Shown: piece by piece, positions 2,046 through 25,396 of the stretch | Layout of the letters: each line of letters opens with the position of its first letter | Numbering within the stretch: the first letter of the stretch is position 1 | Assembly (NCBI GenBank): GCA_963770565.1 | Contig: CAVYQE010000001.1 | Coordinates: 320,001-384,000, forward strand | Direction: 5' to 3' | DNA length: 64,000 nucleotides | From: an uncultured Actinomycetota bacterium | Lineage (GTDB): Bacteria; Actinomycetota; Actinomycetes; JAFAQI01 | Notes under the pieces: model-generated | Told to the model about the DNA's origin: nothing | Seen by the model: only the letters and a program-made list of their open reading frames with translations | Database searches by the model: none | Made by a program: the position numbers and the translations under genes

Positions 2046-2075
2046 TTGAAATTGTGCCACCTCTTCCGATATAGT
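2046..2075 (+). promoter_or_regulatory. Sigma70-like promoter at the left end of the phage-like cluster
   Basis: TTGAAA (2046-2051), 18-bp spacer, TATAGT (2070-2075). Confidence 0.55.
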
Positions 2076-2088
2076 CGCGTGAGTTGAG

Positions 2089-2166
2089 CGGTATCAGCGG
2101 AGCCTGACAAGAACCAGGTATCTCAAGAGCCCGCCGTCGGACGTTTGTCCGGCGGCGGGCTTTTTT
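2089..2166 (+). ncRNA. Putative cis-regulatory leader RNA with intrinsic terminator (copy 1)
   Basis: CGGTATC..GAGCCTG-loop-CAGGTATCT..GAGCCCGCCG-hairpin-CGGCGGGC-TTTTTT; same architecture at 13788-13867. Confidence 0.65.
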
Positions 2167-2211: not shown

Positions 2212-2412
2212 ATGAAATTGTTTCAATGGTTGCTGGCCAACCAAGACGCGTTGTTGGCGATCGTCGCGGAGTTGGAGACGATCTTCGGCGGCTCGTCTCC
2301 TACGCCCGCGCCCCAGACGATCGATCTGAGCGGCATCCAAGCGTTCATCGCCGCGGTGGAAAAGTGGCTCCCCGTGATCGAAGCGATTGTCGCCCAGTTC
2401 GCGGCCAATTGA
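2212..2412 (+). CDS. Small amphipathic hypothetical protein (66 aa), first gene of the cluster
   Basis: ORF with GGAGG RBS upstream and host-like codon usage. Confidence 0.7.
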   Translation: MKLFQWLLANQDALLAIVAELETIFGGSSPTPAPQTIDLSGIQAFIAAVEKWLPVIEAIVAQFAAN

Positions 2413-7079: not shown

Positions 7080-7726
7080 TCGTTCCCAGGCTCTGCCTGG
7101 GAACGCCCTGCACTTGAGGCTCCGCCTCAACGTCAGCAGCGGATCGAGCCGACTTCGCCGACAAACGACGAGGCAGAGCCTCGCAGGCAGTGCGTTCCCA
7201 GGCTCTGCCTGGCAGCGCAGTTTGTGAGATGGAATCGTATCGACGTTTATGCTGTTTTTGTTCGGGGCTTTGGAAAGGACGGCAGGAGATCAAGGAACCC
7301 GGTAGGGTTCCCAGACATGAGCCGGTGGTTGACGCCGTCAGGCCGATACCACCGGTCGTGAAATCGAACAATCCCTTTTGCACCCCGATAGGGGTGCCAG
7401 CGCTCTGCGACCCCTACCGGGGTCGAAGAAAAGTTTTCGCGTTCCGATGCCGGCGGTGTCGGCCTGCGGCCTCAACCGCCGGCTAATGTCTGCCATCCCT
7501 ATCGGGATGAATTTCATGCCACCTCGGAGTCGGGAATTGTGCGAGTACGTGGGCGGAACAAAAACCGACCAAAACACGAACTCGAATTCCACTTCGAAAC
7601 TCCACAGATTGCACAGCCCAGGCTCCGCCTCGTCATCACGACCCGCCACCAATCGCCACGCAACGAGCCGTGCCGCGCGGCAGAGCCGTGCCCGCAGTGC
7701 GTTCCCAGGCAGAGCCTGGGAACGAG
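7080..7726. mobile_element. REP (CGTTCCCAGGCTCTGCCTGGGAACG) cluster with an embedded ~400-bp composite non-autonomous element
   Basis: 7215-7620 recurs inverted at ~34794-35120 and internally deleted at ~48276-48505; ends ...TTGCACAGCCC. Confidence 0.7.
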
Positions 7727-7769
7727 ATGCGAACAGCCGACAACCGACAACCGACCAAGGACCAATCCG

Positions 7770-8905
7770 ATGCTCGAAATCATCAACTCCTGTCCGCTGC
7801 ACGATTCGTTTCGCGTCCAACAGGTCGCCGGGATGTTCGATGTGCCGCTGGCCGAGAAGCTCAGCGAGCGTTTTACGGTCGAGATGCCGGCGCTCGACGG
7901 TGATTGGCGGATCGGGCTGATCGTCGGCCCGTCGGGCAGCGGCAAAACGACGCTCGCCCGGCGGCTCTTCGGCGATGCGCTGGTCGAGCGGACCGAGTGG
8001 CCGGCGAATCGGGCCGTCGTCGATTGTTTCGGCGACCTGCCGATCGGAGAAATCGTCGGGTTGCTCATCGCTGTCGGATTCAGCTCGCCCCCGTCGTGGA
8101 TCAAGCCCTACGCCGTGCTCAGCGGCGGCGAACGCTTCCGCTGCGATCTGGCGCGGGCGTTGAGCGGAGGGCAGAGAGCAAAGAGCGGAGCGCCGGACAC
8201 TTCTCCGCTCTCTGCTCCCTGCTCTTCGCTCGCACCGCTTGTGGCCTTCGACGAATTCACCAGCGTCGTCGATCGCACCGTGGCGAAGTTCGGCTCGGCG
8301 GCGGTGGCGAAGGGAATTCGCAACGGGCGAATCGACTGTCGATTCGTCGCGATGACTTGTCATTACGACGTGATCGAGTGGCTCGCGCCCGATTGGGTGC
8401 TCGATATGGCCAGCCGCGAATTCCAATGGAGGTCGCTTCGGCGACCGCCAATCGAGCTGGACATCTTTCGTTGCCGGAGTCGTGCATGGGCCTTGTTTGC
8501 GAAGCATCACTATTTGAACGGCCGCTTGAACCGCTCGGCCCGCTGCTTTATGGCATTGTGGGACGGGCGCCGGCGGCGTTTTGCGCGACGTTGCCGGTCA
8601 TCGGCCGCGCGCGGCGATGGCGGATCACGCGGCTGGTGACGCTCCCGGATTTTCAGGGCATCGGCATCGGCTTGCGCCTGGCGGAGGCGGTCGGCGATCG
8701 GCATCGTGCCCAGGGAGAACGCTATAGCATCACCGCCAGCCATCCGGCCGTGATCGGCCATTGCCGAAATTCGCCGCGCTGGCGGGCGACGCAAGTGATG
8801 AAGACCGGCTCGCGGCCTACTCTCGGGATTCCGAGCTATCGCGGCTCGTGCGGTCGCGCCGTCGTGTCGTTCGAATACGTTTCAGCTTCGGAACCTCGAC
8901 CGTGA
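7770..8905 (+). CDS. ABC-type ATPase fused to GNAT acetyltransferase (phage-associated); frameshift near 8570
   Basis: Walker [14 protein letters not shown] signature, Walker B VAFDEF, TCHYD; GNAT motif [14 protein letters not shown]. Confidence 0.8.
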
Positions 8906-9209
8906 ACAAACCCATATTGCCCGTGACGGGAAACGGCTCGATCGCCTGGGCGTCGGCCAGCTCCCACGCATATTTATCGGCAGAACCCTCGAAGCCAGCC
9001 CCCGCGGCATCGCTCGGCAGAAAACGGCGAACATCAATGAGATTCACCACGCCGACGGCCACGCCGACCGGATCATCGCCGTGCGGCCGTTTGGTGGCGC
9101 AAATCAACAACGGCCCGCGATGCGACGTGGCCCACGAGCGGACCTCGATGGTCTTCTTCCCCGCGGCAATCAGCGAGGCCCAAGGTTGATGGACGGAGAG
9201 CGCTTTCAT
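8817..9209 (-). CDS. ASCH domain protein
   Basis: MKALSVHQPWASLIAAGKKTIEVRSW..RGPLLI is the canonical ASCH N-terminus. Confidence 0.85.
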   Translation of the reverse strand: MKALSVHQPWASLIAAGKKTIEVRSWATSHRGPLLICATKRPHGDDPVGVAVGVVNLIDVRRFLPSDAAGAGFEGSADKYAWELADAQAIEPFPVTGNMGLFTVEVPKLKRIRTTRRRDRTSRDSSESRE

Positions 9210-9354
9210 GGAGATGAAGATAGCGGCTGGCTTGCGAGAATCAAGGCGACGATGCACGTAGGACGGCTCTCCCGAGCCGTCGTACCAGACGGCTCGGGAG
9301 AGCCGTCCTACGGGATCCGCCACCCGTCAACCCGAGGCCATTCGAATCGCACCC

Positions 9355-9819
9355 GTGAAATCCAGCCGCTATAAACTCGACGAAACCAAGCAGCGCGAGA
9401 TCTGCGCGATTCTCGCCGTCGGCGGCACTCGGCTGATGGCCGCCGCGTATGTCGGCTGCTGTGTGGCGACGATCCGCCGCGCGGCGCTGCGCGAAGCGGC
9501 GTTCGCCGCGCAGCTTCGCAAAGCGGAGAGCAGCGCCGAGATCACGTTCCTCAAGAGCATCCACGCCGCCGCGAGCGACGTCAAGCAGTGGCGGGCCGCG
9601 GCCTGGGCCCTCGAGCGGCTGTTCCCCGAGCGCTACGCCCGCCGCCTGCCCGACTCGATCACCGTCGAGCAAATGACCGAAATCATCAAGGCCCTGGGAG
9701 CGATCATCGTCGGCGAAGTGCCGGTCAAGCGATATCGCCAGCGCGTGCTGGCTCGCTTGGCGGACTTGCTGGCGGAGCAGCCGCCGAACAAGAAGGTAAA
9801 GGCATCCCGTGGAAAGTAA
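9355..9819 (+). CDS. HTH protein, putative terminase small subunit
   Basis: N-terminal HTH; WRAAAWALERLFPERY motif; directly precedes and overlaps TerL. Confidence 0.6.
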   Translation: MKSSRYKLDETKQREICAILAVGGTRLMAAAYVGCCVATIRRAALREAAFAAQLRKAESSAEITFLKSIHAAASDVKQWRAAAWALERLFPERYARRLPDSITVEQMTEIIKALGAIIVGEVPVKRYRQRVLARLADLLAEQPPNKKVKASRGK

Positions 9820-11426
9820 TCTGATCTTCGGCTGGCGCGGGCTCGACGCGGCGAACCGTTCGCTCCGCATCCTGCACGAGTCGATCGAGAATGAGGGGAA
9901 CGTCGATCGCCGCCCGGCCGCAATCGCCCGGCAATGGAGCTTGCTCGATTGGGGCCGCGCTTATTTGCCCGATCATTTCCGCGTCGCCCCGTCGCGGATG
10001 CACGTCTGGCTGGCCGAACAGTTCGACGAAATGAAAAACCATCGCGGCCGAAAGCTCAATGTGCTCGGCCCGCGCGGCGGGGCAAAGTCGACGATCGCTA
10101 CGCTGGCGTTCGTGCTCCGCTCGGCCCTCGAAGGCCGCGAGCCGTATATCTGGATCATCTCCGACACCAAGCATCAGGCCATCGCGCATCTGGAAAACGT
10201 CAAGGCCGAGTTGCGCGACAATCCGCTGATCGCCGCCGATTATCCCGAGGCGGCCGCGGCGGGGCGACGCTGGCGCGAGAATCTCATCGGGCTGGCGAAT
10301 GGCGTCACGATCGAAGCCTTCGGCACGGGGCAGCGGATCCGCGGCCGCCGCAGCCGCGAGCATCGGCCGACGCTCATCGTGTGCGACGATTTGCAGGACG
10401 ATCGGCATATCGAATCGCGCCTGGCCGCGCGAACATTCGGCCCGTTGGTTTCACGGAAAGTTGCTGAAGGCGGGAACGAAGCGAACGAACGTGGTGAATC
10501 TGGCCACCGCCCTGCATCGCGAGGCGCTGGCCCTGGTTCTCGACGAGACGCCCGGCTGGATTTCGCGGCGGTTCGCGGCCATCGAGCGCTGGCCCGACAA
10601 TATGCCGCTGTGGGCCGAGTGGGAGCAGATCTATGCCGACGTTGAACGACCGGATAGCCGCGAAGCCGCGCGGGCGTTCTTCGAAGCGCATCGCGCGGCG
10701 ATGGAGGCCGGCGCCGAGTTGCTCTGGCCCGAGGAAGAGGACTTGTACACGCTGATGGCGATGCGCGTCGAGGAGGGGCGGACGGCGTTCGAGCGCGAGA
10801 AGCAGAATGTGCCGATCAATCCGGAAGCGTGCGAATGGCCCGAGGAGTATTTCGGCGATGGGCTGTGGTTCGACGATTGGCCGGCCGACGTGCAGGTGAA
10901 AACGCTGGCCCTCGATCCGAGCAAGGGGCACGACGCCGGCCGCGGCGACTATTCGGCCTTCGTCATGCTGGCCGTGGATCGCCGCGGGCTGCTCTATCTC
11001 GAAGCCGATCTGGCCCGACGGCCGACGCCGCAGATCGTCAGCGACGGGGTGGAACTCTGCCGGCGATTCAAGCCCGACGTGTTCGGAATCGAGGCGAATC
11101 AGTTCCAGGAATTGCTCGCCGGCGAGTTTGCCGCGGAACTCGCGCGGCAGCGCGTCTACAACGTCGCCCCGTGGGGAATCGAAAACCGGATGAATAAGCA
11201 GACGCGAATCCGCCGCCTCGGGCCGTTCTTGTCGTGCAAGCGGTTGAAGTTCAAGTCCCACTCGCCCGCCACGCGATTATTAGTGGAGCAGTTGAAAGAA
11301 TTCCCCGTCGCCGATCACGACGATGGCCCGGACGCCGCGGAGATGGCGATTCGCCTGGCGGCCGAATGGCTGGAAGGCCGGAAACCCTCGGATGGCTTGG
11401 GAGATCGATTTCGCTTGAGCGTCTAA
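9809..11426 (+). CDS. Phage terminase large subunit; frameshift near 10430
   Basis: PRGGAKST Walker A, RPTLIVCDDLQ Walker B, nuclease motifs LALDPS, GDYSA, HDDGPDA. Confidence 0.9.
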
Positions 11427-11772: not shown

Positions 11773-13149
11773 ATGACCACCAACACCACACCTCTCTCCC
11801 GTCTCGAAAACCGTCTTCAGGAAGCCTACGAACAATTCTGCTCCACCATCGTCAACCCGCTCGATGCGCTGTTCGACGGCGATGGCGCTGCCTGGTTGCC
11901 GCTCGGCGGCGGGCTCGATGCGACCGGCCTCGGCGGCTGCGGGCCGACCACCGAAACGCAGCTTCGCGAAATCCGCCATCAATGCCGGCTGCTCGCCCTG
12001 ACCAACGAAATCGCCATCAACGGCCATGAGAATCGGGTGAGCTTCATCGTCGGCGCGGGGCACACCTATCGGGCGGCCGTGAAGAAGGGGCAGCCGGCGG
12101 CGCCCGATTGGGCCGCGGCCGTGCAGAGCGTGCTCGACGAATTCATCAAGCTCAACTCCTGGCAGCGACGGCAGCAGGAGATCGTGCTCCGCCGCGATCG
12201 CGACGGCGAAGTTTTCCTGCGCCTGTTCGCAGCCCCCGACGGCACGACCCGCGTTCGCTTCGTCGAGCCGGGGCAAGTCGCCACGCCCGCGAATCGCGCG
12301 GCCGATCCGTCGGCCCAATTGGGCATCCTCACCGATCGCGACGACGTCGAAACCGTGCTCGCCTATTGCGTCGATGGCCAGCTCGTCGACGCCGGCGAGA
12401 TTCAGCATCGCAAGGCCAATGTCGATGGCAATGTGCGCCGCGGGCTGCCGCTGTTCTTTCCCGTGCGGAAAAATCTGCGCCGGGCGGAAAAGCTGCTCCG
12501 CAATATGAGCGTCGTGGCCGAGATCCAATCGGCGATCGCCCTGATCCGCAAACATCATCGCAGCAATCGCAGCGCCGTCGAGCAATTCGCCGCCGCCGGG
12601 GCCGATGCCCGCGTGACGAATACGCTGAGCGGGCAAACGACGAACGTTCGCCGCTACGGTCCCGGCACGATTCTCGATACGCATGCCGACATCGACTACG
12701 ACTTTCCCGCCGCCGCGATCGACGCCGGCAGCTTCATCGCCGTGCTGCAGGCCGAATTGCGGGCGATTGCCAGCCGGCTGGTCATGCCCGAGTTCATGCT
12801 GACTTCCGACGCCTCGAACGCGAACTACGCCTCGACGATGGTGGCCGAAGGGCCGGCGATGCGGATGTTCGCCCGGCTGCAAGCGGAGCAAGTGGCCGAC
12901 GACGTTGAGTTGATGACCCGCGTGGTGGCGAACGCCGTGGCGGCCGGCCGACTGCCGCGCGAGGTGCTTTCCGCGATCGAGATCATCGGCATCGCCCCGA
13001 CGCTCACTGTGCGCGATCAGATGCAAGAGGCCCAGCGGTTCCAGATCGAGCACGCCAACGGCATCCTCTCGCCGCAAACCTGGAGCCAACGGCTGGGACT
13101 CGATTACGAGCAAGAGCAAGCGAATTTCGCAACGCATGCCGGCCGGTAA
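11773..13149 (+). CDS. Phage portal protein
   Basis: RRDRDGEVFLR, RFVEP, DASNANYAS motifs; 458 aa; follows TerL. Confidence 0.85.
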   Translation: MTTNTTPLSRLENRLQEAYEQFCSTIVNPLDALFDGDGAAWLPLGGGLDATGLGGCGPTTETQLREIRHQCRLLALTNEIAINGHENRVSFIVGAGHTYRAAVKKGQPAAPDWAAAVQSVLDEFIKLNSWQRRQQEIVLRRDRDGEVFLRLFAAPDGTTRVRFVEPGQVATPANRAADPSAQLGILTDRDDVETVLAYCVDGQLVDAGEIQHRKANVDGNVRRGLPLFFPVRKNLRRAEKLLRNMSVVAEIQSAIALIRKHHRSNRSAVEQFAAAGADARVTNTLSGQTTNVRRYGPGTILDTHADIDYDFPAAAIDAGSFIAVLQAELRAIASRLVMPEFMLTSDASNANYASTMVAEGPAMRMFARLQAEQVADDVELMTRVVANAVAAGRLPREVLSAIEIIGIAPTLTVRDQMQEAQRFQIEHANGILSPQTWSQRLGLDYEQEQANFATHAGR

Positions 13150-13490: not shown

Positions 13491-13560
13491 GACGGCGTTG
13501 GCGCCGGGCCGTTTCGAGCATCAAGACCACAGATTGTTTTTGAATGGCACAAAAATGTCG

Positions 13561-13589
13561 TTGAACCGAAACGTGAACATATGTATAAT
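13561..13589 (+). promoter_or_regulatory. Strong sigma70-like promoter with overlapping palindromic operator
   Basis: TTGAAC, 17-bp spacer, TATAAT; TGAAC-ATAT-GTATA at 13574-13587. Confidence 0.75.
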
Positions 13590-13595
13590 ACACCC

Positions 13596-13778
13596 ATGCT
13601 GACGCTACGAACCACGACCGCGAATCAAACGAAAGTGAGCCAGTTGGAAACCGCCTTGGCGGAACTGCTGGCCGAATCGCTCCGCCGCGGCTTTCACGGC
13701 AAAGCGGCCATCGAGCTGGCCATCCAAGATGGCACGATCCAGCATATCCGCCGCGTGGTCGAGCGGATCGAGAAATAG
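13596..13778 (+). CDS. Leaderless 60-aa DUF2292/YezD-like small protein
   Basis: ATG begins 7 nt after the -10 box; GFHGKAAIELAIQDGTIQHIRRVVE resembles the DUF2292 pattern. Confidence 0.65.
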   Translation: MLTLRTTTANQTKVSQLETALAELLAESLRRGFHGKAAIELAIQDGTIQHIRRVVERIEK

Positions 13779-13787
13779 GAAATCCAT

Positions 13788-13867
13788 CGGTATCGCGTCG
13801 AGCCCGCTCCGGCGGGCATCTGCGTGAGCCCACGGCGGTTCTGCAAAGTGCCGCACGTGGGTTTTTT
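13788..13867 (+). ncRNA. Putative cis-regulatory leader RNA with intrinsic terminator (copy 2)
   Basis: CGGTATC..GAGCCCG-loop-CGGGCATCT..GAGCCCACG-hairpin-CGTGGG-TTTTTT. Confidence 0.65.
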
Positions 13868-13895: not shown

Positions 13896-15159
13896 ATGAA
13901 CGAAACGCTCTTGGAATACTGCAACTCGCGGGGAGTGCCGATCCGTGTCGATCGCACGGCCGGCGTGATCCGCGGCGTGAAAATTCTCGGCCTCCGCTCG
14001 CGCAACGGCCGCGAGTATCTGCCCGAGGCGCTCGGCCGGGCCGCCGCCCTCTATGAAGGGGCCAAGGTCAATGTAAATCATCCCAAGGGGAGCCCCGCCG
14101 CCCCGCGCGATTATCAAGATCGGATCGGCACCGTGCGCGGCGTCGCCGCCCGAGCGGGCGAGGGCCTGTTCGGCGATCTCCATTTCAATCCCAAGCACGC
14201 CCTGGCCGAGCAGCTCATCTGGGACGCCGAGCATGCTCCCGAGAACGTCGGCTTCTCGCACAACGTGCAAGCCCGCACCGCGCGGCGCGACGATTTGCTC
14301 GTCGTCGAGGAGATCACCCGCGTCGAGAGCGTCGATCTGGTGGCTGATCCGGCGACGACCCGCGGGCTGTATGAAGCGGAAGGACAGGGGTCGGAGAACG
14401 TTGTGCCTCGGTCTCCCGACCATGACCAAGTTGTGTCTCGGTCTCCCGACCACGTTGTGTCTCGGTCTCCCGACCACGTTGTGTCTCGGTCTCCCGACCG
14501 TGACTATGTTGTGTCTCGGTCCAATGTTGTGTCTCGGTCTCCCGACCATGTTGTGTCTCGGTCTCCCGACCGTGACACCCGCGCGACCAATGTTGTGTCT
14601 CGGTCCAATGTTGTGTCTCGGTCTCCCGACCATGTTGTGTCTCGGTCTCCTGACCGTGACACCCGCGCGACCGAAGGTCCACTGCGCGCCGGAGACCTAC
14701 GGTCGGATTCTGTGGCACGGTCGGGAGACCGAGCCATAACCGGCGTGGCACGGTCGGGAGACCGAGCCACAACTGCGGCCGAAGGTTCGAACGAGGGGTC
14801 AGGGGTCGGGGGCCGGGGGTCGGAAGGGCAAGCGGAACTCGCCGAGTTGGCGGAGCTTCGCAGCCGGTTGCTGCGGCCTCGAAGCCGAACATGCGGCCGT
14901 GCTGTTGGAGCAATCCATTTCCGACGAGCTGCTGGCCGCCCAAGTCGCGCCGCCGCTGGTCAGCGAACTCTTTCGCCAGCAGCTTCGCGCGGCGGGCAGT
15001 CCCGAAGCGCGCCGGCAGTTGATCGTCGAACGGTTGCAAATCGCCCGCGCGGCCGCCGCCGCCCGGCCGGCGAGCAAAGACCAGTATTTGGCCGAATCGA
15101 CCGCTCCGAGCCGATTGCCGACCGATCCCAAAAGCTTTGCCGATTCGATCACGGCCTGA
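13896..15159 (+). CDS. Head maturation protease/scaffold-like protein with in-frame REP expansion; frameshift near 14870
   Basis: SRNGREY, VNVNHP, GFSHNV, SVDLVADPATTRGLYE motifs; lies between portal and capsid. Confidence 0.75.
14399..14775. repeat. Intragenic tandem array of REP half-sites (GTTGTGTCTCGGTCTCCCGACC)
   Basis: About 10 direct copies plus inverted GTGGCACGGTCGGGAGACC; translates as VVSRSPDH repeats. Confidence 0.85.
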
Positions 15160-15262
15160 TGGCGCCGCAGCGGAATTCGCAAGAATTCCGAGAGCCGACC
15201 ACAACGACCGCGTCTGAATTCTTGCGAATTCAGCTACGACCCCCAACCCAAGGAACTCCTCC

Positions 15263-15954
15263 ATGACCAAGCTCATCGACTTGCTCGATCAACTCAAGCA
15301 TCGCCGCACGTTCGGCTTTCTCGACGATTTCGATTGGTATCTCAGCCCGCACCGCTGGACCAGCGTGTTCAGTCATAGCGGCACGGTGACGATCGCCGAC
15401 GCCGCGGGCGGGATCGCGACGATCGCGGCCAGCGGCGGATCGGTCGCCGCGAACGACGAAAGCTACGTGCATACCAGCCACGCCGTGTTCGAATTCGCCG
15501 GCGACAAGCCGATCCTGTTCGAGGCGGCCGTGCAGTTCAGCGAGGCCAACGTCGATCAAGCGAATATCCTCGTCGGCCTGATGGACTCGGTAGCCGCCGG
15601 AATGCTGGCCGACGACAACGCCGGACCGAAAGCATCGTACAGCGGCATGGTCTTCTTCAAGGCCGGGGAAGCAACGTCTGGAGCTGCCAATCGTCGGTCG
15701 GCTCGGCGAAAACGACGACCGTCACCTCGACTCCTGCCGGCGGCGCCGCCTATCAAACGCTCACCGGCCAATGGCAGCCGATCAACGCGACTCAAGCCGA
15801 AGCGGCGTTCTTCATCGACGGGCTGCTCGTGGCCCGGCAACTCTTCACGTTCACCGGCGGCGTGGCGATGCAACTTTGCGTCGGCGTGAAAAACGGCAGC
15901 GCCACGCTCGAAACGTTGAACGTCGATTACTCGGCCGGCTATCAACTGCGATGA
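15263..15954 (+). CDS. Putative capsid decoration/accessory protein; frameshift near 15670
   Basis: Beta-rich protein (FGFLDDFDWY..., GVKNGSAT.ETLNVDY) immediately before the major capsid gene. Confidence 0.5.
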
Positions 15955-15968
15955 ATGGCAGTTGTCCT

Positions 15969-16318
15969 GTTGTGGCTCGGTCACTGTTGTGGCTCGGTCT
16001 CACTGTTGTGGCTCGGTCTCCCGACCGTGCCACATGCCGCGACCGCAGGTCTCCCATGCATTGCGAGCCGTGTGGTGATTCGGGAGACCTTCGGTCGGAT
16101 CCGTGGCATGGTCGGGAGACCATGCCACAACACAGTGGCTCGGTCACTGTTGTGGCTCGGTCTCACTGCTGTGTGGCTCGGTCTCCCGACCGAGCCACAT
16201 GCCGCGACCGCAGGTCTCCCTGCCTCGCGGGCCGTGTGGTGATTCAGGAGACCTTCGGTCGGATCCGTGGCATGGTCGGGAGACCATGCCACAACACGGG
16301 AGACCATGGCCACAACAC
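15969..16318. repeat. REP cluster (GTGGCTCGGTCTCCCGACC / GGTCGGGAGACCATGCCAC), duplicated ~170-bp unit
   Basis: Two near-identical hairpin units. Confidence 0.8.
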
Positions 16319-16401
16319 CGGCGGACAAAGCACAACGGACAACGGACAACGGACAACTCTCGATTTCCAATCACTCTCAACCTATTCGGAGACGCTTGAT
16401 T

Positions 16402-17580
16402 ATGACCAAAGCCGTCAACTATCGCGAACTGAAACGCCTGTACGAAACGATGGGCTCCCAGCAGGTCTGCCGCCATTTGCGCGAGTCGCTCGGCGACGGG
16501 CATCTCCGCCCCGAGGATTTCTCGCTCCGCGATCTGGCCGAAGCGACGATCCCCGACGGCCGCGAGTTCGTCCGGCTGCTCGATCCGCGCTCGAAGGCCG
16601 GCGGGATCGATCTGCTCGAAGCGGCCGACGCCGTCGATACGGCCACGTTCAGCAATATCACCGGCCAGATCGTTTTCGCGAAGATCATGGAGGGCTTCTC
16701 GTCGGAGGCCTTCGTCGCCGGCCGAATGGTCGAGACGATTCCCACCCGCTTCAGCGGCGAGAAAATCCCCGGCATCGGCCCAATGGGCGACGCGGCCGAG
16801 GCGATCGACGAAGGGCGGCCCTACCCGCACGTCGGCCTCTCCGAGGATTACATCGAAACGCCCGCCACCACCAAGCGCGGCATGATCGTCCCCGTCACCA
16901 AGGAAGCGATCTTCTTCGATCGCACGCATCTCGTGCTCCAGCGGGCCGGCGAGGTCGGCGAGTTTCTCGGCCTCAACAAGGAGAAGCGGATTCTCGATTG
17001 CCTCATCGATGCCAACAGCACCGATCATCGCTACAAGTGGCGCGGGACGAGCTACGCGACCTATCAGACGTCCGACCCTTGGATCAACATCAAGGCGACC
17101 AATCCGCTGGTGGATTGGACCGACGTCGATGCGGCCGAGCAGCTTCTGGCCGACATCACCGATCCGAATACGGGCGAGCCGGTGCTGATCATGGCCGACA
17201 CGATCCTGGTGTGCCCCGAATTGCTGCACGCCGCGCGGCGGATCGTCGATGCCACCGAGATCGAACAGGTTGACAACCAGGCCGCCGCCAAGACGGTCCG
17301 CACTCTGGCCCCCAATCCGATGGCCGGCAGCTACCGCATCCTGTCGAGCCGGCTGCTGCGGTCGCGGCTCACGGCGGCCGGCCAGGCCACGAGCAATTGG
17401 TATCTCGGCAATTTCCGCAAGGCCTTCGCCTACATGGAGAATTGGCCGATCACCGTCACCCAGGCCCCGCAAAACAGCGAAGCCGAATTCACCCAAGACA
17501 TCATGATCCGCTTCAAGGCCAGCGAGCGCGGCGCGGCGGCCACGCTCGAACCCCGCTACGTCGTCAAGAACACGGCCTGA
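16402..17580 (+). CDS. Major capsid protein (HK97-fold, Mu gpT-like)
   Basis: 392 aa; FSNITGQ, EGRPYP, KRGMIVPVTKEAIFFDRT, RFKASERGAA..EPRYVVK; synteny. Confidence 0.8.
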   Translation: MTKAVNYRELKRLYETMGSQQVCRHLRESLGDGHLRPEDFSLRDLAEATIPDGREFVRLLDPRSKAGGIDLLEAADAVDTATFSNITGQIVFAKIMEGFSSEAFVAGRMVETIPTRFSGEKIPGIGPMGDAAEAIDEGRPYPHVGLSEDYIETPATTKRGMIVPVTKEAIFFDRTHLVLQRAGEVGEFLGLNKEKRILDCLIDANSTDHRYKWRGTSYATYQTSDPWINIKATNPLVDWTDVDAAEQLLADITDPNTGEPVLIMADTILVCPELLHAARRIVDATEIEQVDNQAAAKTVRTLAPNPMAGSYRILSSRLLRSRLTAAGQATSNWYLGNFRKAFAYMENWPITVTQAPQNSEAEFTQDIMIRFKASERGAAATLEPRYVVKNTA

Positions 17581-22452: not shown

Positions 22453-25396
22453 GAACCGCCAAGGACGCCAAGGACGCCAAGAAGCTATTCGATAATCTCA
22501 TTTCAAGTCTTGGCGTCCTTGGCGTCTTGGCGGTTCAATGCGACAATCCGCATGACACAGACGCAGAAACGTGTTTTTCGACAACTCCTTCGGACCTCAG
22601 GGAATGGAGTCGACTGAAATCGACCAAAGCTGGTTTTAGGAACACTAATCGGCGCTAATTAGCGCTAATCAGCGATGATTAGTTTTCCCAATCTGTCATG
22701 CCGCCGTTCTTTCTCGCTCTCGGTTTTTCCGTGACCTCGTGTAAAAACTTGGTTGCGGCGTGACGCCCGCGCTATGCAATCTGTGGATAAAAATATCTCT
22801 GATTTCTTGGCGTCCTTGGCGTCTTGGCGGTTCAATGCGACAATCCGCATGACACAGACGCAGAAACGTGTTTTTCGACAACTCCTTCGGACCTCAGGGA
22901 ATGGAGTCGACTGAAATCGACCAAAGCTGGTTTTAGGAACACTAATCGGCGCTAATCAGCGCTAATCAGCGATGATTAGTTTTCCCAATCTGTCATGCCG
23001 CCGTTCTTTCTCGCTCTCGGTTTTTCCGTGACCTCGTGTAAAAACTTGGTTGCGGCGTGACGCCCGCGCTATGCAATCTGTGGATAAAAATATCTCTGAT
23101 TTCTTGGCGTCCTTGGCGTCTTGGCGGTTCAATGCGACAATCCGCATGACACAGACGCAGAAACGTGTTTTTCGACAACTCCTTCGGACCTCAGGGAATG
23201 GAGTCAACTGAAATCGACCAAAGCTGGTTTTAGGAACACTAATCGGCGCTAATCCGCGCTAATCAGCGATGATTAGTTTTCCCGATCTGTCATGCCGCCG
23301 TTCTTTCTCGCTCTCGGTTTTTCCGTGACCTCGTGTAAAAACTTGGTAGCGGCGTGACGGCCGCGCTATGCAATCCGTGGATAAAAATATCTCTGATTTC
23401 TTGGCGTCCTTGGCGTCTTGGCGGTTCAATGCGACAATCCGCATGACACAGACGCAGAAACGTGTGTCTCGACAACTCCTTCGGACCTCAGGGACTGGAG
23501 TCGACTGAAATCGACCAAAGCTGGTTTTAGGAACACTAATCGGCGCTAATCAGCGCTAATCAGCGAAGATTAGTGTTCCCGATCTGTCATGCCGCCGTGC
23601 TTTCTCGCTCTCGGTGTTTCCCTGACTCGTGTAAAAACTTGGTAGCGGCGTGACGGCCGCGCTATGCAATCCGTGGATAAAAAGATCTCTGATTTCTTGG
23701 CGTCCTTGGCGTCTTGGCGGTTCAATGCGACAGTCTGCATGACACAGACGCAGAAACGTGTTTTTCGACAACTCCTTCGAATCTCAGAGAAATGGAGTCG
23801 ACCGAAATCGACCAAAGCTGGTTTTAGGAACACTAATCGGCGCGTAATCAGCGCTAATCAGCGATGATTAGTGTTCCTGATCTGTCATGCCACCGTGCTT
23901 TTTCGCTCTCGGTTGTTCCGTGACCTCGTGTAAACACTTGGTTGCGGCGTGACGGCCGCGTTATGCAATCTGTGGATGAAAACATTTCTGCCCTCTCGGC
24001 GTCCTTGGCGTCTTGGCGGTTCAATGCAGGGCGATTGCATCATGTTGCATACGATGTGGAAGTTTGCGGTATCGCCGACACGGCCCAGTTCATCTTGACG
24101 TAACCGACCAATTATGCCGCGGAGGCTGAAGCTGCTGCTCGCATACTCGATCTCGCCATTTCGAATCAATACCGAATGTTGGTTGCCCAATCCCCGCCAT
24201 CATTGCCAGTGTGGTGCAATCGCCCTGCGGTTCAATGCGACAGTCTGCATGACAAAGACGCAGAAACGTGATTTTCGACAACTCCTTCGGACCTCAGGGA
24301 ATGGAGTTAACTGAAATCGACCAAAGCTGGTTTTAGGAACACTAATCGGCGCTAATTAGCGCTAATCAGCGATGATTAGTTTTCCCAATCTGTCATGCCG
24401 CCGTTCTTTCTCGCTCTCGGTTTTTCCGTGACCTCGTGTAAAAACTTGGTTGCGGCGTGACGCCCGCGCTATGCAATCTGTGGATAAAAATATCTCTGAT
24501 TTCTTGGCGTCCTTGGCGTCTTGGCGGTTCAATGCGACAATCCGCATGACACAGACGCAGAAACGTGTTTTTCGACAACTCCTTCGGACCTCAGGGAATG
24601 GAGTCAACTGAAATCGACCAAAGCTGGTTTTAGGAACACTAATCGGCGCTAATTCGCGCTAATCAGCGATGATTAGTTTTCCCAATCTGTCATGCCGCCG
24701 TTCTTTCTCGCTCTCGGTTTTTCCGTGACCTCGTGTAAAAACTTGGTTGCGGCGTGACGCCCGCGCTATGCAATCTGTGGATAAAAATATCTCTGATTTC
24801 TTGGCGTCCTTGGCGTCTTGGCGGTTCAATGCGACAATCCGCATGACACAGACGCAGAAACGTGTGTCTCGACAACTCCTTCGGACCTCAGGGACTGGAG
24901 TCAACTGAAATCGACCAAAGCTGGTTTTAGGAACACTAATCGGCGCTAATCAGCGCTAATCAGCGAAGATTAGTGTTCCCGATCTGTCATGCCGCCGTGC
25001 TTTCTCGCTCTCGGTGTTTCCCTGACTCGTGTAAAAACGTGGTAGCGGCGTGACGGCCGCGCTATGCAATCCGTGGATAAAAAGATCTCTGATTTCTTGG
25101 CGTCCTTGGCGTCTTGGCGGTTCAATGCGACAATCCGCATGACACAGATGCAGAAACGTGATTTTCGACAACTCCTTCGAACCTCAGAGAAATGGAGTCG
25201 ACTGAAATCGACCAGAGCTGGTTTTAGGAACACTAATCGGCGCTAATCAGCGCTAATCAGCGATGATTAGTGTTCCCGATCTGTCATGCCGCCGTGCTTT
25301 TTCGCTCTCGATTGTTCCGTGACTCGTGTAAACACTTGGTTGCGGCCTGACGGCTTTCTGCTTTCTTGGCGTCCTTGGCGCCTTGGCGGTTCAATC
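22453..25396. repeat. Tandem array of nine ~297-bp non-coding units (5+4) starting from a REP doublet
   Basis: Anchor CTTGGCGTCCTTGGCG at 22509, 22806, 23103, 23400, 23696, 23995, 24503, 24800, 25096, 25365. Confidence 0.95.
24027..24227. mobile_element. 201-bp MITE with 13-bp TIRs and 10-bp TSD
   Basis: CAGGGCGATTGCA..TGCAATCGCCCTG flanked by CGGTTCAATG at 24017-24026 and 24228-24237. Confidence 0.8.

Follow-up and report, generated by a model that had tools for sequence, protein, structure and literature searches.

How is a gene cluster of phage origin switched on when each of its two transcription units appears to start behind a transcription terminator? This question is raised by a stretch of 64,000 nucleotides (nt) of contig CAVYQE010000001.1, hereafter called the window. 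Its region from ~2.0 to 22.4 kb is a phage-derived gene cluster, in which an initial annotation had described an RNA element in two copies (2090-2166 and 13789-13867) and had taken it for an undescribed attenuator or antitermination site of phage-like operons. Our results support the kind of element proposed, in that each copy holds a canonical terminator together with a predicted alternative helix that would exclude it, but the restriction to phage operons proved too narrow. Based on sequence comparison and predicted folds, the element family probably acts in cis as a conditional intrinsic terminator, that is, as a transcription attenuator, to which we assign a probability of roughly 0.55; within this reading we infer termination, readthrough, the direction of control and the trigger.

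Both copies read in the window at the coordinates and with the letters first annotated, and a pattern scan of both strands of the 4.43-Mb genome found the tandem pattern at these two sites only. Each copy consists of two modules, here divided into segments a and b (module 1) and a' and b' (module 2), in which GGUAUC or a close variant is followed by a short spacer and GAGCC or GAGCCC (Table 1). Segments b and a' are predicted to form the base of a first hairpin, P1, and b' would form the 5' base of the terminator hairpin P2 before the U-tract. In the predicted fold, the P1 base pairs GAGCC of b with GGUAUC of a' (G-C, A-U, bulged A, G.U, C-G, C-G); in copy 1 it reaches G2100-C2122 and A2101-U2121, with A2120 bulged. 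The folds of copy 1 (-49.2 kcal/mol, z -6.3) and copy 2 (-48.5 kcal/mol, z -5.0) are much more stable than those of shuffles, and both copies qualify as intrinsic (Rho-independent) terminators, with a G+C-rich hairpin directly before the U-tract. Relaxed matches to a single module numbered 132 in the genome; a stable hairpin and a T-run followed only four of them, which are the window's own four modules.

Relatives were gathered with the portal protein as the anchor, giving 65 loci from IMG/VR as well as 231 species genomes from which the best 80 loci were taken, all 80 from metagenome-assembled genomes (MAGs) of Planctomycetota (Pirellulales, Thermoguttaceae and the like). A covariance model was built from 16 aligned copies, MAFFT having misaligned the two window copies when given these alone. 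It returned 36 full-length coding-strand matches in 34 of the 65 IMG/VR loci plus the window and, in the search of Planctomycetota that the initial annotation had proposed, 83 coding-strand matches in the 80 genome loci. Covariation was strong: 92.2% of cells were paired in the viral set, with double changes in 12 of 17 pairs, and 92.5% in the genome set, with double changes in 13 of 17; in both sets none of 500 shuffles was as good, an indicative figure rather than a probability, and slid controls were 27-52% paired. The P1 covariation originally read from the two window copies (GCCTG/CAGGT against GCCCG/CGGGC) is correct and was borne out by more than 100 relatives. P2, described from two copies as differing in sequence while keeping its pairing, carries compensatory changes across the family alignments.

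The letters held constant are GGUAUC and GAGCC in module 1, (GG)UAUC and GAGCCC in module 2, the GGGC partner and the U-tract (0.8-1.0). Among the 83 genome relatives, GGUAUC and GAGCC are conserved at 0.86-1.0 per column, with 0.88-1.0 for module 1, and the U-tract columns at 0.8-0.99. Variation is tolerated in the spacers, in both sequence and length (4-6 nt), and in the loops, with P1 loops that differ in sequence among 121 copies and range from 4 to more than 30 nt. A scan of Rfam 15 over the whole window gave no match at gathering thresholds, and at E<=10 the surroundings of both copies gave sub-threshold, terminator-like noise only, far below gathering scores. The open-access literature searched (Planctomycetes RNA motifs, prophage and antitermination, gene transfer agents, DUF2292/YezD) contained no description of the element, which also differs from the alignment rows printed for the Rhodopirellula-1 motif. 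The initial annotation had allowed that homologues or covariation might be lacking or that a known repeat might be hit; homologues and covariation were found, and an Rfam match was not. This comparative evidence indicates that the element is a real, previously uncatalogued family of structured RNA, 80-100 nt long and represented by more than 120 copies. An exact-pattern scan of IMG/VR yielded mostly chance hits; among the matches listed (117 stretches), 80 loci were scored with the model, of which three were strong (>=61 bits) and lay on contigs already in the set (L019, L024 and L033), and four were marginal (~21-22 bits). A third model match in the genome, outside the window (G000:C1:68522-68590, 29 bits), was rejected because it covers 5S rRNA at its 3' end (...GAGAGUAGGUAUCGCCGG) and the terminator behind it; wider model searches would do well to mask this false positive.

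The reading as an attenuator rests on a second partner for b'. Segment a can pair with b' (G-C, G-C, U.G, bulged A, U-A, C-G) in the same helix as the P1 base, and this a:b' helix encloses P1 and takes up the bottom five nt of the 5' arm of the terminator, which excludes the terminator. Standard pairs make up 97.9% of the a:b' cells. The outermost pair, C10:G108, is C-G in 69, U-A in 8 and C.A in 1 of the 83 genome copies, and C-G in 32, U.G in 4 and U-A in 2 of the 38 viral ones, the U-A cases coming from left and right copies of several different clusters. An upstream segment can pair with the 5' arm of the terminator, as in attenuators, with comparative support from one covarying pair. When the RNAs were cut just after b', 93 of 115 had a:b' in their minimum free energy structure; at full length, the terminator fold is more stable by ~11-12 kcal/mol. 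Moreover, segment a keeps its GG and the P2 base its G-C/C-G pairs without change, whereas the corresponding pairs of P1 covary; this is what two partners for b' would lead one to expect. Two other pairings were rejected, namely a hairpin within one module (a with b, a' with b'), since b and a' covary together while a and b' are fixed, and spacer-spacer pairing, which was no better than permuted pairs.

We propose that a:b' would form once b' has been transcribed and before the 3' arm of P2 exists. Because a:b' is weaker than P2, the default outcome should be termination, giving an RNA of ~85 nt from the left promoter and an mRNA of ~270 nt from the right promoter, the latter encoding the 60-aa protein Sp60 described below. 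For transcription to proceed into the ~11-kb left operon, which extends to terminase and portal, and on the right into the head/tail operon, a:b' would have to be stabilised by something. Together with the identical but oppositely oriented P1 base, a:b' would build a duplex with pseudo-twofold symmetry and an internal loop at its centre, to which a dimeric protein or a symmetric ligand might bind.

The position of the copies is consistent with such a role. The window contains two sigma70-like matches between 1 and 20000, each just upstream of one copy; their number does not exceed chance (2 against 2.6 expected), and it is their positions that are informative. Copy 1 starts 14 nt past the left -10 box at the extreme left of the cluster, and the promoter architecture cTTGAAAnnnGGCCAg...TAnnnT is strikingly conserved ahead of 34 left copies in other genomes. 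In front of copy 2, the initial annotation had correctly placed a promoter but had overlooked the Sp60 open reading frame (ORF) between promoter and element (13596-13778), which makes copy 2 a 3'-untranslated or intercistronic element rather than a 5' leader; it is located downstream of the portal gene and ahead of the next large gene (13896-15266). The right -10 box ends 6 nt ahead of the Sp60 ATG, which implies a leaderless mRNA, and Sp60 promoters carry GGTGGCCAAAAA directly upstream of the -35 box. The same scan found no further consensus promoter ahead of the left operon or the head operon, so that their expression must pass P2. The promoters of the window (13540-13600 and 2030-2080) and of the upstream copies of L084-L160 have in common GGTGGCCAAAAA before the -35 box, TTGAAAnnnGGCCAg within the spacer, or both. 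By their appearance, the palindromic TGGCCA boxes could serve as operators for one DNA-binding regulator of all leader-bearing units.

The two-copy layout recurs in relatives. Flanks of at least 9 kb upstream and at least 3 kb downstream of the portal gene were available in 42 genome loci; both copies are present in 22 of them, the left only in 9, the right only in 4 and neither in 7. All copies in portal loci lie on the coding strand, and the left copy is 4.8-9.6 kb upstream of the portal gene, except in L087 and L091, whose sole copy is ~250 nt upstream. An IMG/VR provirus (G062) has the same pair 10.7 kb apart. In another (G070), the modules of the left copy read GGCGUC for GGUAUC, and the portal-side element also has (G)GCGUC in both modules. 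Indeed, rare variants (GGUUUC/GGGCCC, GGCAUC, GGCGUC, GAGCCU) are usually common to both copies of a cluster, with exceptions in L085, L097, L120 and L135. Because the variants change in concert within a cluster, the left and right copies may well answer to the same constraint, as this pattern suggests.

Several points weigh against conditional termination as the function of the element. Among the five a:b' pairs, compensatory change is confined to one; the remaining four are invariant or one-sided and hence neutral. No co-evolution that would extend a:b' is seen in the spacers and flanks, where 171 of 200 permutations equalled or exceeded the native pairing in stability, and P2 is predicted to prevail over this short helix at equilibrium. 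Since the sequences were aligned by fitting to the model and are related, perhaps partly redundant, the shuffle statistics overstate significance. Copies are absent from the 7 of 42 well-covered loci mentioned above and, under stricter filters, from 11 of the 31 portal-bearing genomes of one Planctomycetota order. In addition, regulation is predicted here from sequence and folds, and the trans factor is a matter of candidates.

The first of these candidates is Sp60 itself, a conserved product with a predicted helix and beta-hairpin, in which G32, G35 and G46 are invariant among 31 aligned viral examples. At least 369 homologues are present in databases; the named ones are all hypothetical, and the organism-labelled ones come from Planctomycetota MAGs. 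Sp60 might be the trans factor of a bipartite protein-RNA antitermination system like lambda N/nut or conAn1/conAn2, made from the terminated transcript and bound, probably as a dimer, to the GGUAUC/GAGCC modules at both copies. The right-hand copy nearly always comes after Sp60, and the linkage is tight, as the RNA element lies at most 400 nt downstream of 46 of the 50 Sp60 ORFs in the genome loci (one more has a divergent version and three have none), and the same order holds in the IMG/VR loci. Each cluster has one Sp60 gene and two RNA sites, and the clusters without a right element (L140, L145) retain Sp60 and the left copy. With its own strong promoter and leaderless start, Sp60 is predicted to be expressed even while the terminator works. 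In five genomes where Sp60 appeared to be missing near the portal gene, it was located together with the element on another contig.

In the order mentioned above (41 genomes sampled), the leader was found in 23, Sp60 in 20 and the portal in 31 genomes; leader and Sp60 occur together in 19, the leader only in 4, Sp60 only in 1 and neither in 17. The RNA is therefore present in 19 of 20 Sp60-bearing genomes, but Sp60 is missing from 4 of the 23 that bear the RNA. One well-assembled genome (G617) has three leaders, which head host-like operons on contigs of 177-252 kb, and has neither a portal gene nor, even at E<=1, any Sp60. Nor does the protein show signs of an RNA-binding fold. No relative was found in Pfam, PHROG, PDB or BFVD; its confident AlphaFold model (predicted local distance difference test score 87) matched nothing above noise in fold searches (Foldseek against PDB and BFVD, VIA-align more widely; best Z 4.9), and a PDB sequence-profile search gave nothing below E 0.79. 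The nearest Atlas cluster with a Pfam family scores 0.78, no more than a lead. DUF2292 (YezD-like, PF10055) is at most a weak lead, with no match for the window's Sp60 and matches for 2 of 31 family members (best E 0.29). An apparent correlation between Sp60 residue 44 (Q to A/S/T) and the change of GAGCCC to GGGCCC in the RNA was rejected, being confounded by clade, with the A-to-G change compensated within P2. On balance we regard Sp60-dependent antitermination as unlikely; a host protein is an alternative trigger to Sp60.

The occurrence of leaders without Sp60 leads to the question of what else they precede. Two of the five genomes with Sp60 on another contig hold 6-7 leader copies, and in the family of one of them the leader occurs in 6 of 6 genomes. 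The extra copies in related Planctomycetota genomes follow consensus-like promoters and precede host-like operons, so that the element is not specific to phage-like operons. These operons encode a histidine kinase with a sigma54-dependent regulator, a 1516-aa secretin protein, BlaI/BlaR-like proteins, WHH and SHH nuclease toxins with immunity proteins, subtilases, a glycosyltransferase and a transglutaminase-like protein. A leader sub-type with a conserved extra leader of ~50 nt (L302, G072:C65; L309, G582:C16; L312, G599:C24) precedes polymorphic-toxin-like cassettes of WHH/SHH HNH nucleases with SUKH, DUF2019 or DMP19-type immunity genes.

A leader that heads unrelated operons, from histidine kinase and sigma54 regulator, secretin and BlaI/BlaR-like genes to toxins, proteases and the phage-like cluster, and that can occur without Sp60 might be a riboswitch, in which the a:b' and b:a' duplex with its internal loop binds a small molecule, e.g. 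a symmetric second messenger, and the stabilised antiterminator places a regulon under one signal. The antiterminator/terminator layout is that of transcriptional riboswitches, and the HMP-PP riboswitch, as described in PMC6478431, offers a precedent for a very small aptamer embedded in a terminator. However, the internal-loop spacers vary in sequence and length (4-6 nt), unlike a ligand pocket, the conserved letters are mostly accounted for by pairing, the regulated genes have no common metabolic theme, and the element is found only in a single bacterial lineage and in mobile elements of that lineage. We consider direct ligand sensing distinctly unlikely.

A broader version is equally doubtful when all its parts are taken jointly: the leader would be the common switch of a regulon of Pirellulales-type Planctomycetota that comprises the phage-derived particle cluster together with toxin, protease, secretin and signalling operons, one signal would be sensed directly by a riboswitch of a new class, assembled from a quasi-self-complementary module in duplicate, and the particle cluster would be vertically kept and gene-transfer-agent-like. 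In the order sampled, the portal gene is mostly single copy, and some genomes split the terminase/portal part and the Sp60/head part over different contigs. Because the portal is widespread, mostly single-copy and sometimes on a separate contig from the head part, the pattern seems more like a domesticated, gene-transfer-agent-like cluster than an ordinary prophage; among the papers listed from the open-access literature, none names a gene transfer agent or Planctomycetes in its title. In the window's own genome, the cluster looks horizontally acquired, since no other genome sampled from its groups has the leader or the portal, or else this absence is a sampling effect. A sample of 60 genomes from the genus, family and class of the window contained no relative of the portal protein, nor did 400 phylum-level genomes of its group, and the leader was absent from 150 class-level genomes under stricter filters, with few candidates scored. 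The best named relative of a host protein of the window comes from a 'Pirellulales bacterium'.

It is also conceivable, though improbable, that the short terminated RNA is itself the product. As a multi-copy small RNA, it would titrate an RNA-binding protein through its GGUAUC/GAGCC sites or pair with targets, and its place ahead of operons would be secondary. Strong promoters with conserved upstream boxes drive the element, the predicted left RNA is compact, terminator-ended and ~85 nt long, some carriers have 2-7 copies per genome, and direct repeats of a short motif are likewise found in sponge RNAs such as RsmY/Z. On the other side, the cases examined place the element right before genes and on their coding strand, with no other consensus promoter found, and its conserved segments are largely explained by intramolecular pairing. 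GAUACC occurs in the genome at chance level, no further search for a GAUACC target class having been made.

Slightly more improbable still is a constitutive element, that is, a leaky terminator or an RNA-stability or processing signal that fixes the ratio of short to long transcripts, e.g. for high Sp60 and low head-gene expression. Intergenic terminators are common in phage late operons, and a hairpin with a U-tract alone explains part of the conservation, but such a signal leaves unexplained the invariant upstream GGUAUC, the duplicated module, the a:b' covariation and the placement right after promoters with no gene between. Very little speaks for a DNA-level site, in which the GGTATC-N-GAGCC repeats, ~27 bp apart and reading GG-N10-GC in modules with a 4-nt spacer, would be operators for a DNA-binding protein or a sigma54-like promoter, because the spacer varies from 4 to 6 nt (for which the sigma54-like reading was rejected), compensatory changes keep P1 and P2 paired, and the element is strand-specific relative to genes.

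The genes around the copies are those of the phage-derived cluster (Table 1), which also has ORFs resembling head-completion and tail-completion proteins. The first gene after copy 2 stands in place of a prohead protease or scaffold gene, a role suggested for it by position only. The first gene after the left leader encodes a helix-turn-helix protein in many relatives, instead of the 66-aa ORF of the window; the left operons of L092, L113, L116, L140, L150, L152, L155 and others open with such a protein, a ~190-aa unknown protein and a ~500-aa protease, which is trypsin-like in these and subtilisin-like in L133. Integrase or replication genes were not seen between leader and terminase in the left operons of relatives. 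In the window, the large terminase gene and a P-loop ATPase/GNAT-like gene (phrog_11143, 7539-8905) are each split over overlapping frames, which reflects either frameshifts in a decaying element or assembly errors; in provirus G062 the counterparts of both are each in one frame. An ASCH-domain gene (phrog_3193, 8817-9323) lies on the minus strand within the otherwise plus-strand left operon, 32 nt from the start of the small terminase gene. Just left of the left promoter is a 511-aa ORF (427-1962) with a weak endonuclease/exonuclease/phosphatase match. Of the 80 genome loci, 14 have a homologue of it (40-55% identity in the matched C-terminal part) immediately before the left leader; the ORF either belongs to the element or is favoured as its neighbour. 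The right end of the cluster is occupied by a tandem array (22508-25352) with a 297-bp unit in two stretches (~5.1 and 3.8 copies, 94-95% alike), which has ~50% G+C in a 68% G+C genome, no codon bias and shorter CTAATCAGCG repeats inside.

Table 1 Features of the leader copies and of the phage-derived cluster in the window
Feature	Position (strand)	Description
Left promoter	2046..2075 (+)	TTGAAA-18-TATAGT, spacer with GCCA box; sigma70-like match
Copy 1 module 1	2090..2104 (+)	GGUAUC (a, 2090-2095) - AGCG - GAGCC (b, 2100-2104)
Copy 1 hairpin P1	2102..2119 (+)	GCCUG / CAGGU; fold and covariation
Copy 1 module 2	2117..2132 (+)	GGUAUC (a', 2117-2122) - UCAA - GAGCCC (b', 2127-2132)
Copy 1 intrinsic terminator P2	2125..2166 (+)	18-bp stem to 2164, 12 G-C pairs, U-tract 2161-2166
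First ORF after copy 1	2212..2412 (+)	66 aa, no family match
Small terminase	9355-9819	
Large terminase	9809-11426	Split over two reading frames
Portal gene, lambda-type	11773..13149 (+)	Last gene of left operon
Right promoter	13561..13589 (+)	TTGAAC-17-TATAAT; sigma70-like match
Sp60	13596..13778 (+)	Conserved 60-aa ORF, helix and beta-hairpin, motif RGFxG...QDGTIQ
Copy 2 module 1	13789..13804 (+)	GGUAUC (13789-13794) - GCGUC - GAGCC (13800-13804)
Copy 2 hairpin P1	13802..13817 (+)	GCCCGC / GCGGGC; fold and covariation
Copy 2 module 2	13815..13831 (+)	GGCAUC (13815-13820) - UGCGU - GAGCCC (13826-13831)
Copy 2 intrinsic terminator P2	13828..13867 (+)	Stem to 13862, U-tract 13862-13867; fold
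First gene after copy 2	13896..15266 (+)	456 aa, phrog_29592
Major capsid protein	16267-17580	

With this element, a new structured RNA family is added for a phylum in which both gene regulation and phages have hardly been studied. The leader seems to gate the two transcription units of a head/tail cluster of phage origin and, in some genomes, toxin, protease, secretin and two-component operons, and thereby offers a testable handle on how such clusters switch on. Its design is unusually compact, as two copies of one module would provide both the hairpin base and the antiterminator. If the trigger is a small molecule or a 60-aa protein of a new fold, either would represent a new regulatory principle.

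Among known systems, the element is close to the classical attenuators (trp, pyr, bgl/sac RAT, T-box and riboswitch platforms), in which a terminator likewise lies between promoter and genes and an upstream segment can pair with its 5' arm in mutually exclusive folds. It differs from them in matching no Rfam family and in drawing its antiterminator from two copies of one quasi-self-complementary module. The nutL and nutR sites (boxA and boxB) of lambda, on which N acts, also occur in two copies per phage genome after promoters and combine a linear conserved sequence with a hairpin; nutR follows cro, as copy 2 here follows a small ORF. However, lambda N reads the boxB loop, and a conserved loop of this kind was not found, the P1 loop varying among the 121 copies; furthermore, the terminator is part of the element here, and no arginine-rich N-like protein was recognised.

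The put sites of HK022 resemble the element in their two stem-loops and in being present twice in the phage genome. The put sites are not known to have a U-tract, to be terminators themselves or to use an alternative fold, whereas the second stem-loop of our element is a canonical terminator, put being compared by description only. In PMC9378689, put is described as two stem-loops in the nascent RNA, encoded twice per phage genome, that affect termination in cis. For the conAn system of Gram-positive conjugative plasmids, PMC8191782 describes conAn2 as an RNA of 260-600 nt without a terminator that mediates processive antitermination, and ConAn1 as a protein of at least 172 codons, with constructs covering codons 1-103 and 82-172. 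The two systems are alike in that a mobile element carries a protein gene with an RNA element directly behind it, at the start of a long operon, and unlike in that our RNA has 80-100 nt with the terminator included and our ORF has 60 codons; the likeness described is one of layout.

RfaH/ops and LoaP, both based on NusG paralogues, are comparable in that a short conserved leader marks several long, often horizontally acquired operons for secretion, toxins or surface structures. The ops site is a DNA element that is not known to show hairpin covariation. Such a system was rejected as unlikely here, since the window's genome has one gene of the NusG family (PF02357; C1:666488-666793, outside the window) and no paralogue. 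Finally, the only Planctomycetes-associated motif that we found in print is Rhodopirellula-1 (Weinberg 2010), whose printed alignment rows read AACAA..GAU..GAAC...GUUAUC. Compared by eye, these rows represent a different motif, in which neither a tandem GGUAUC/GAGCC nor a terminator is present.

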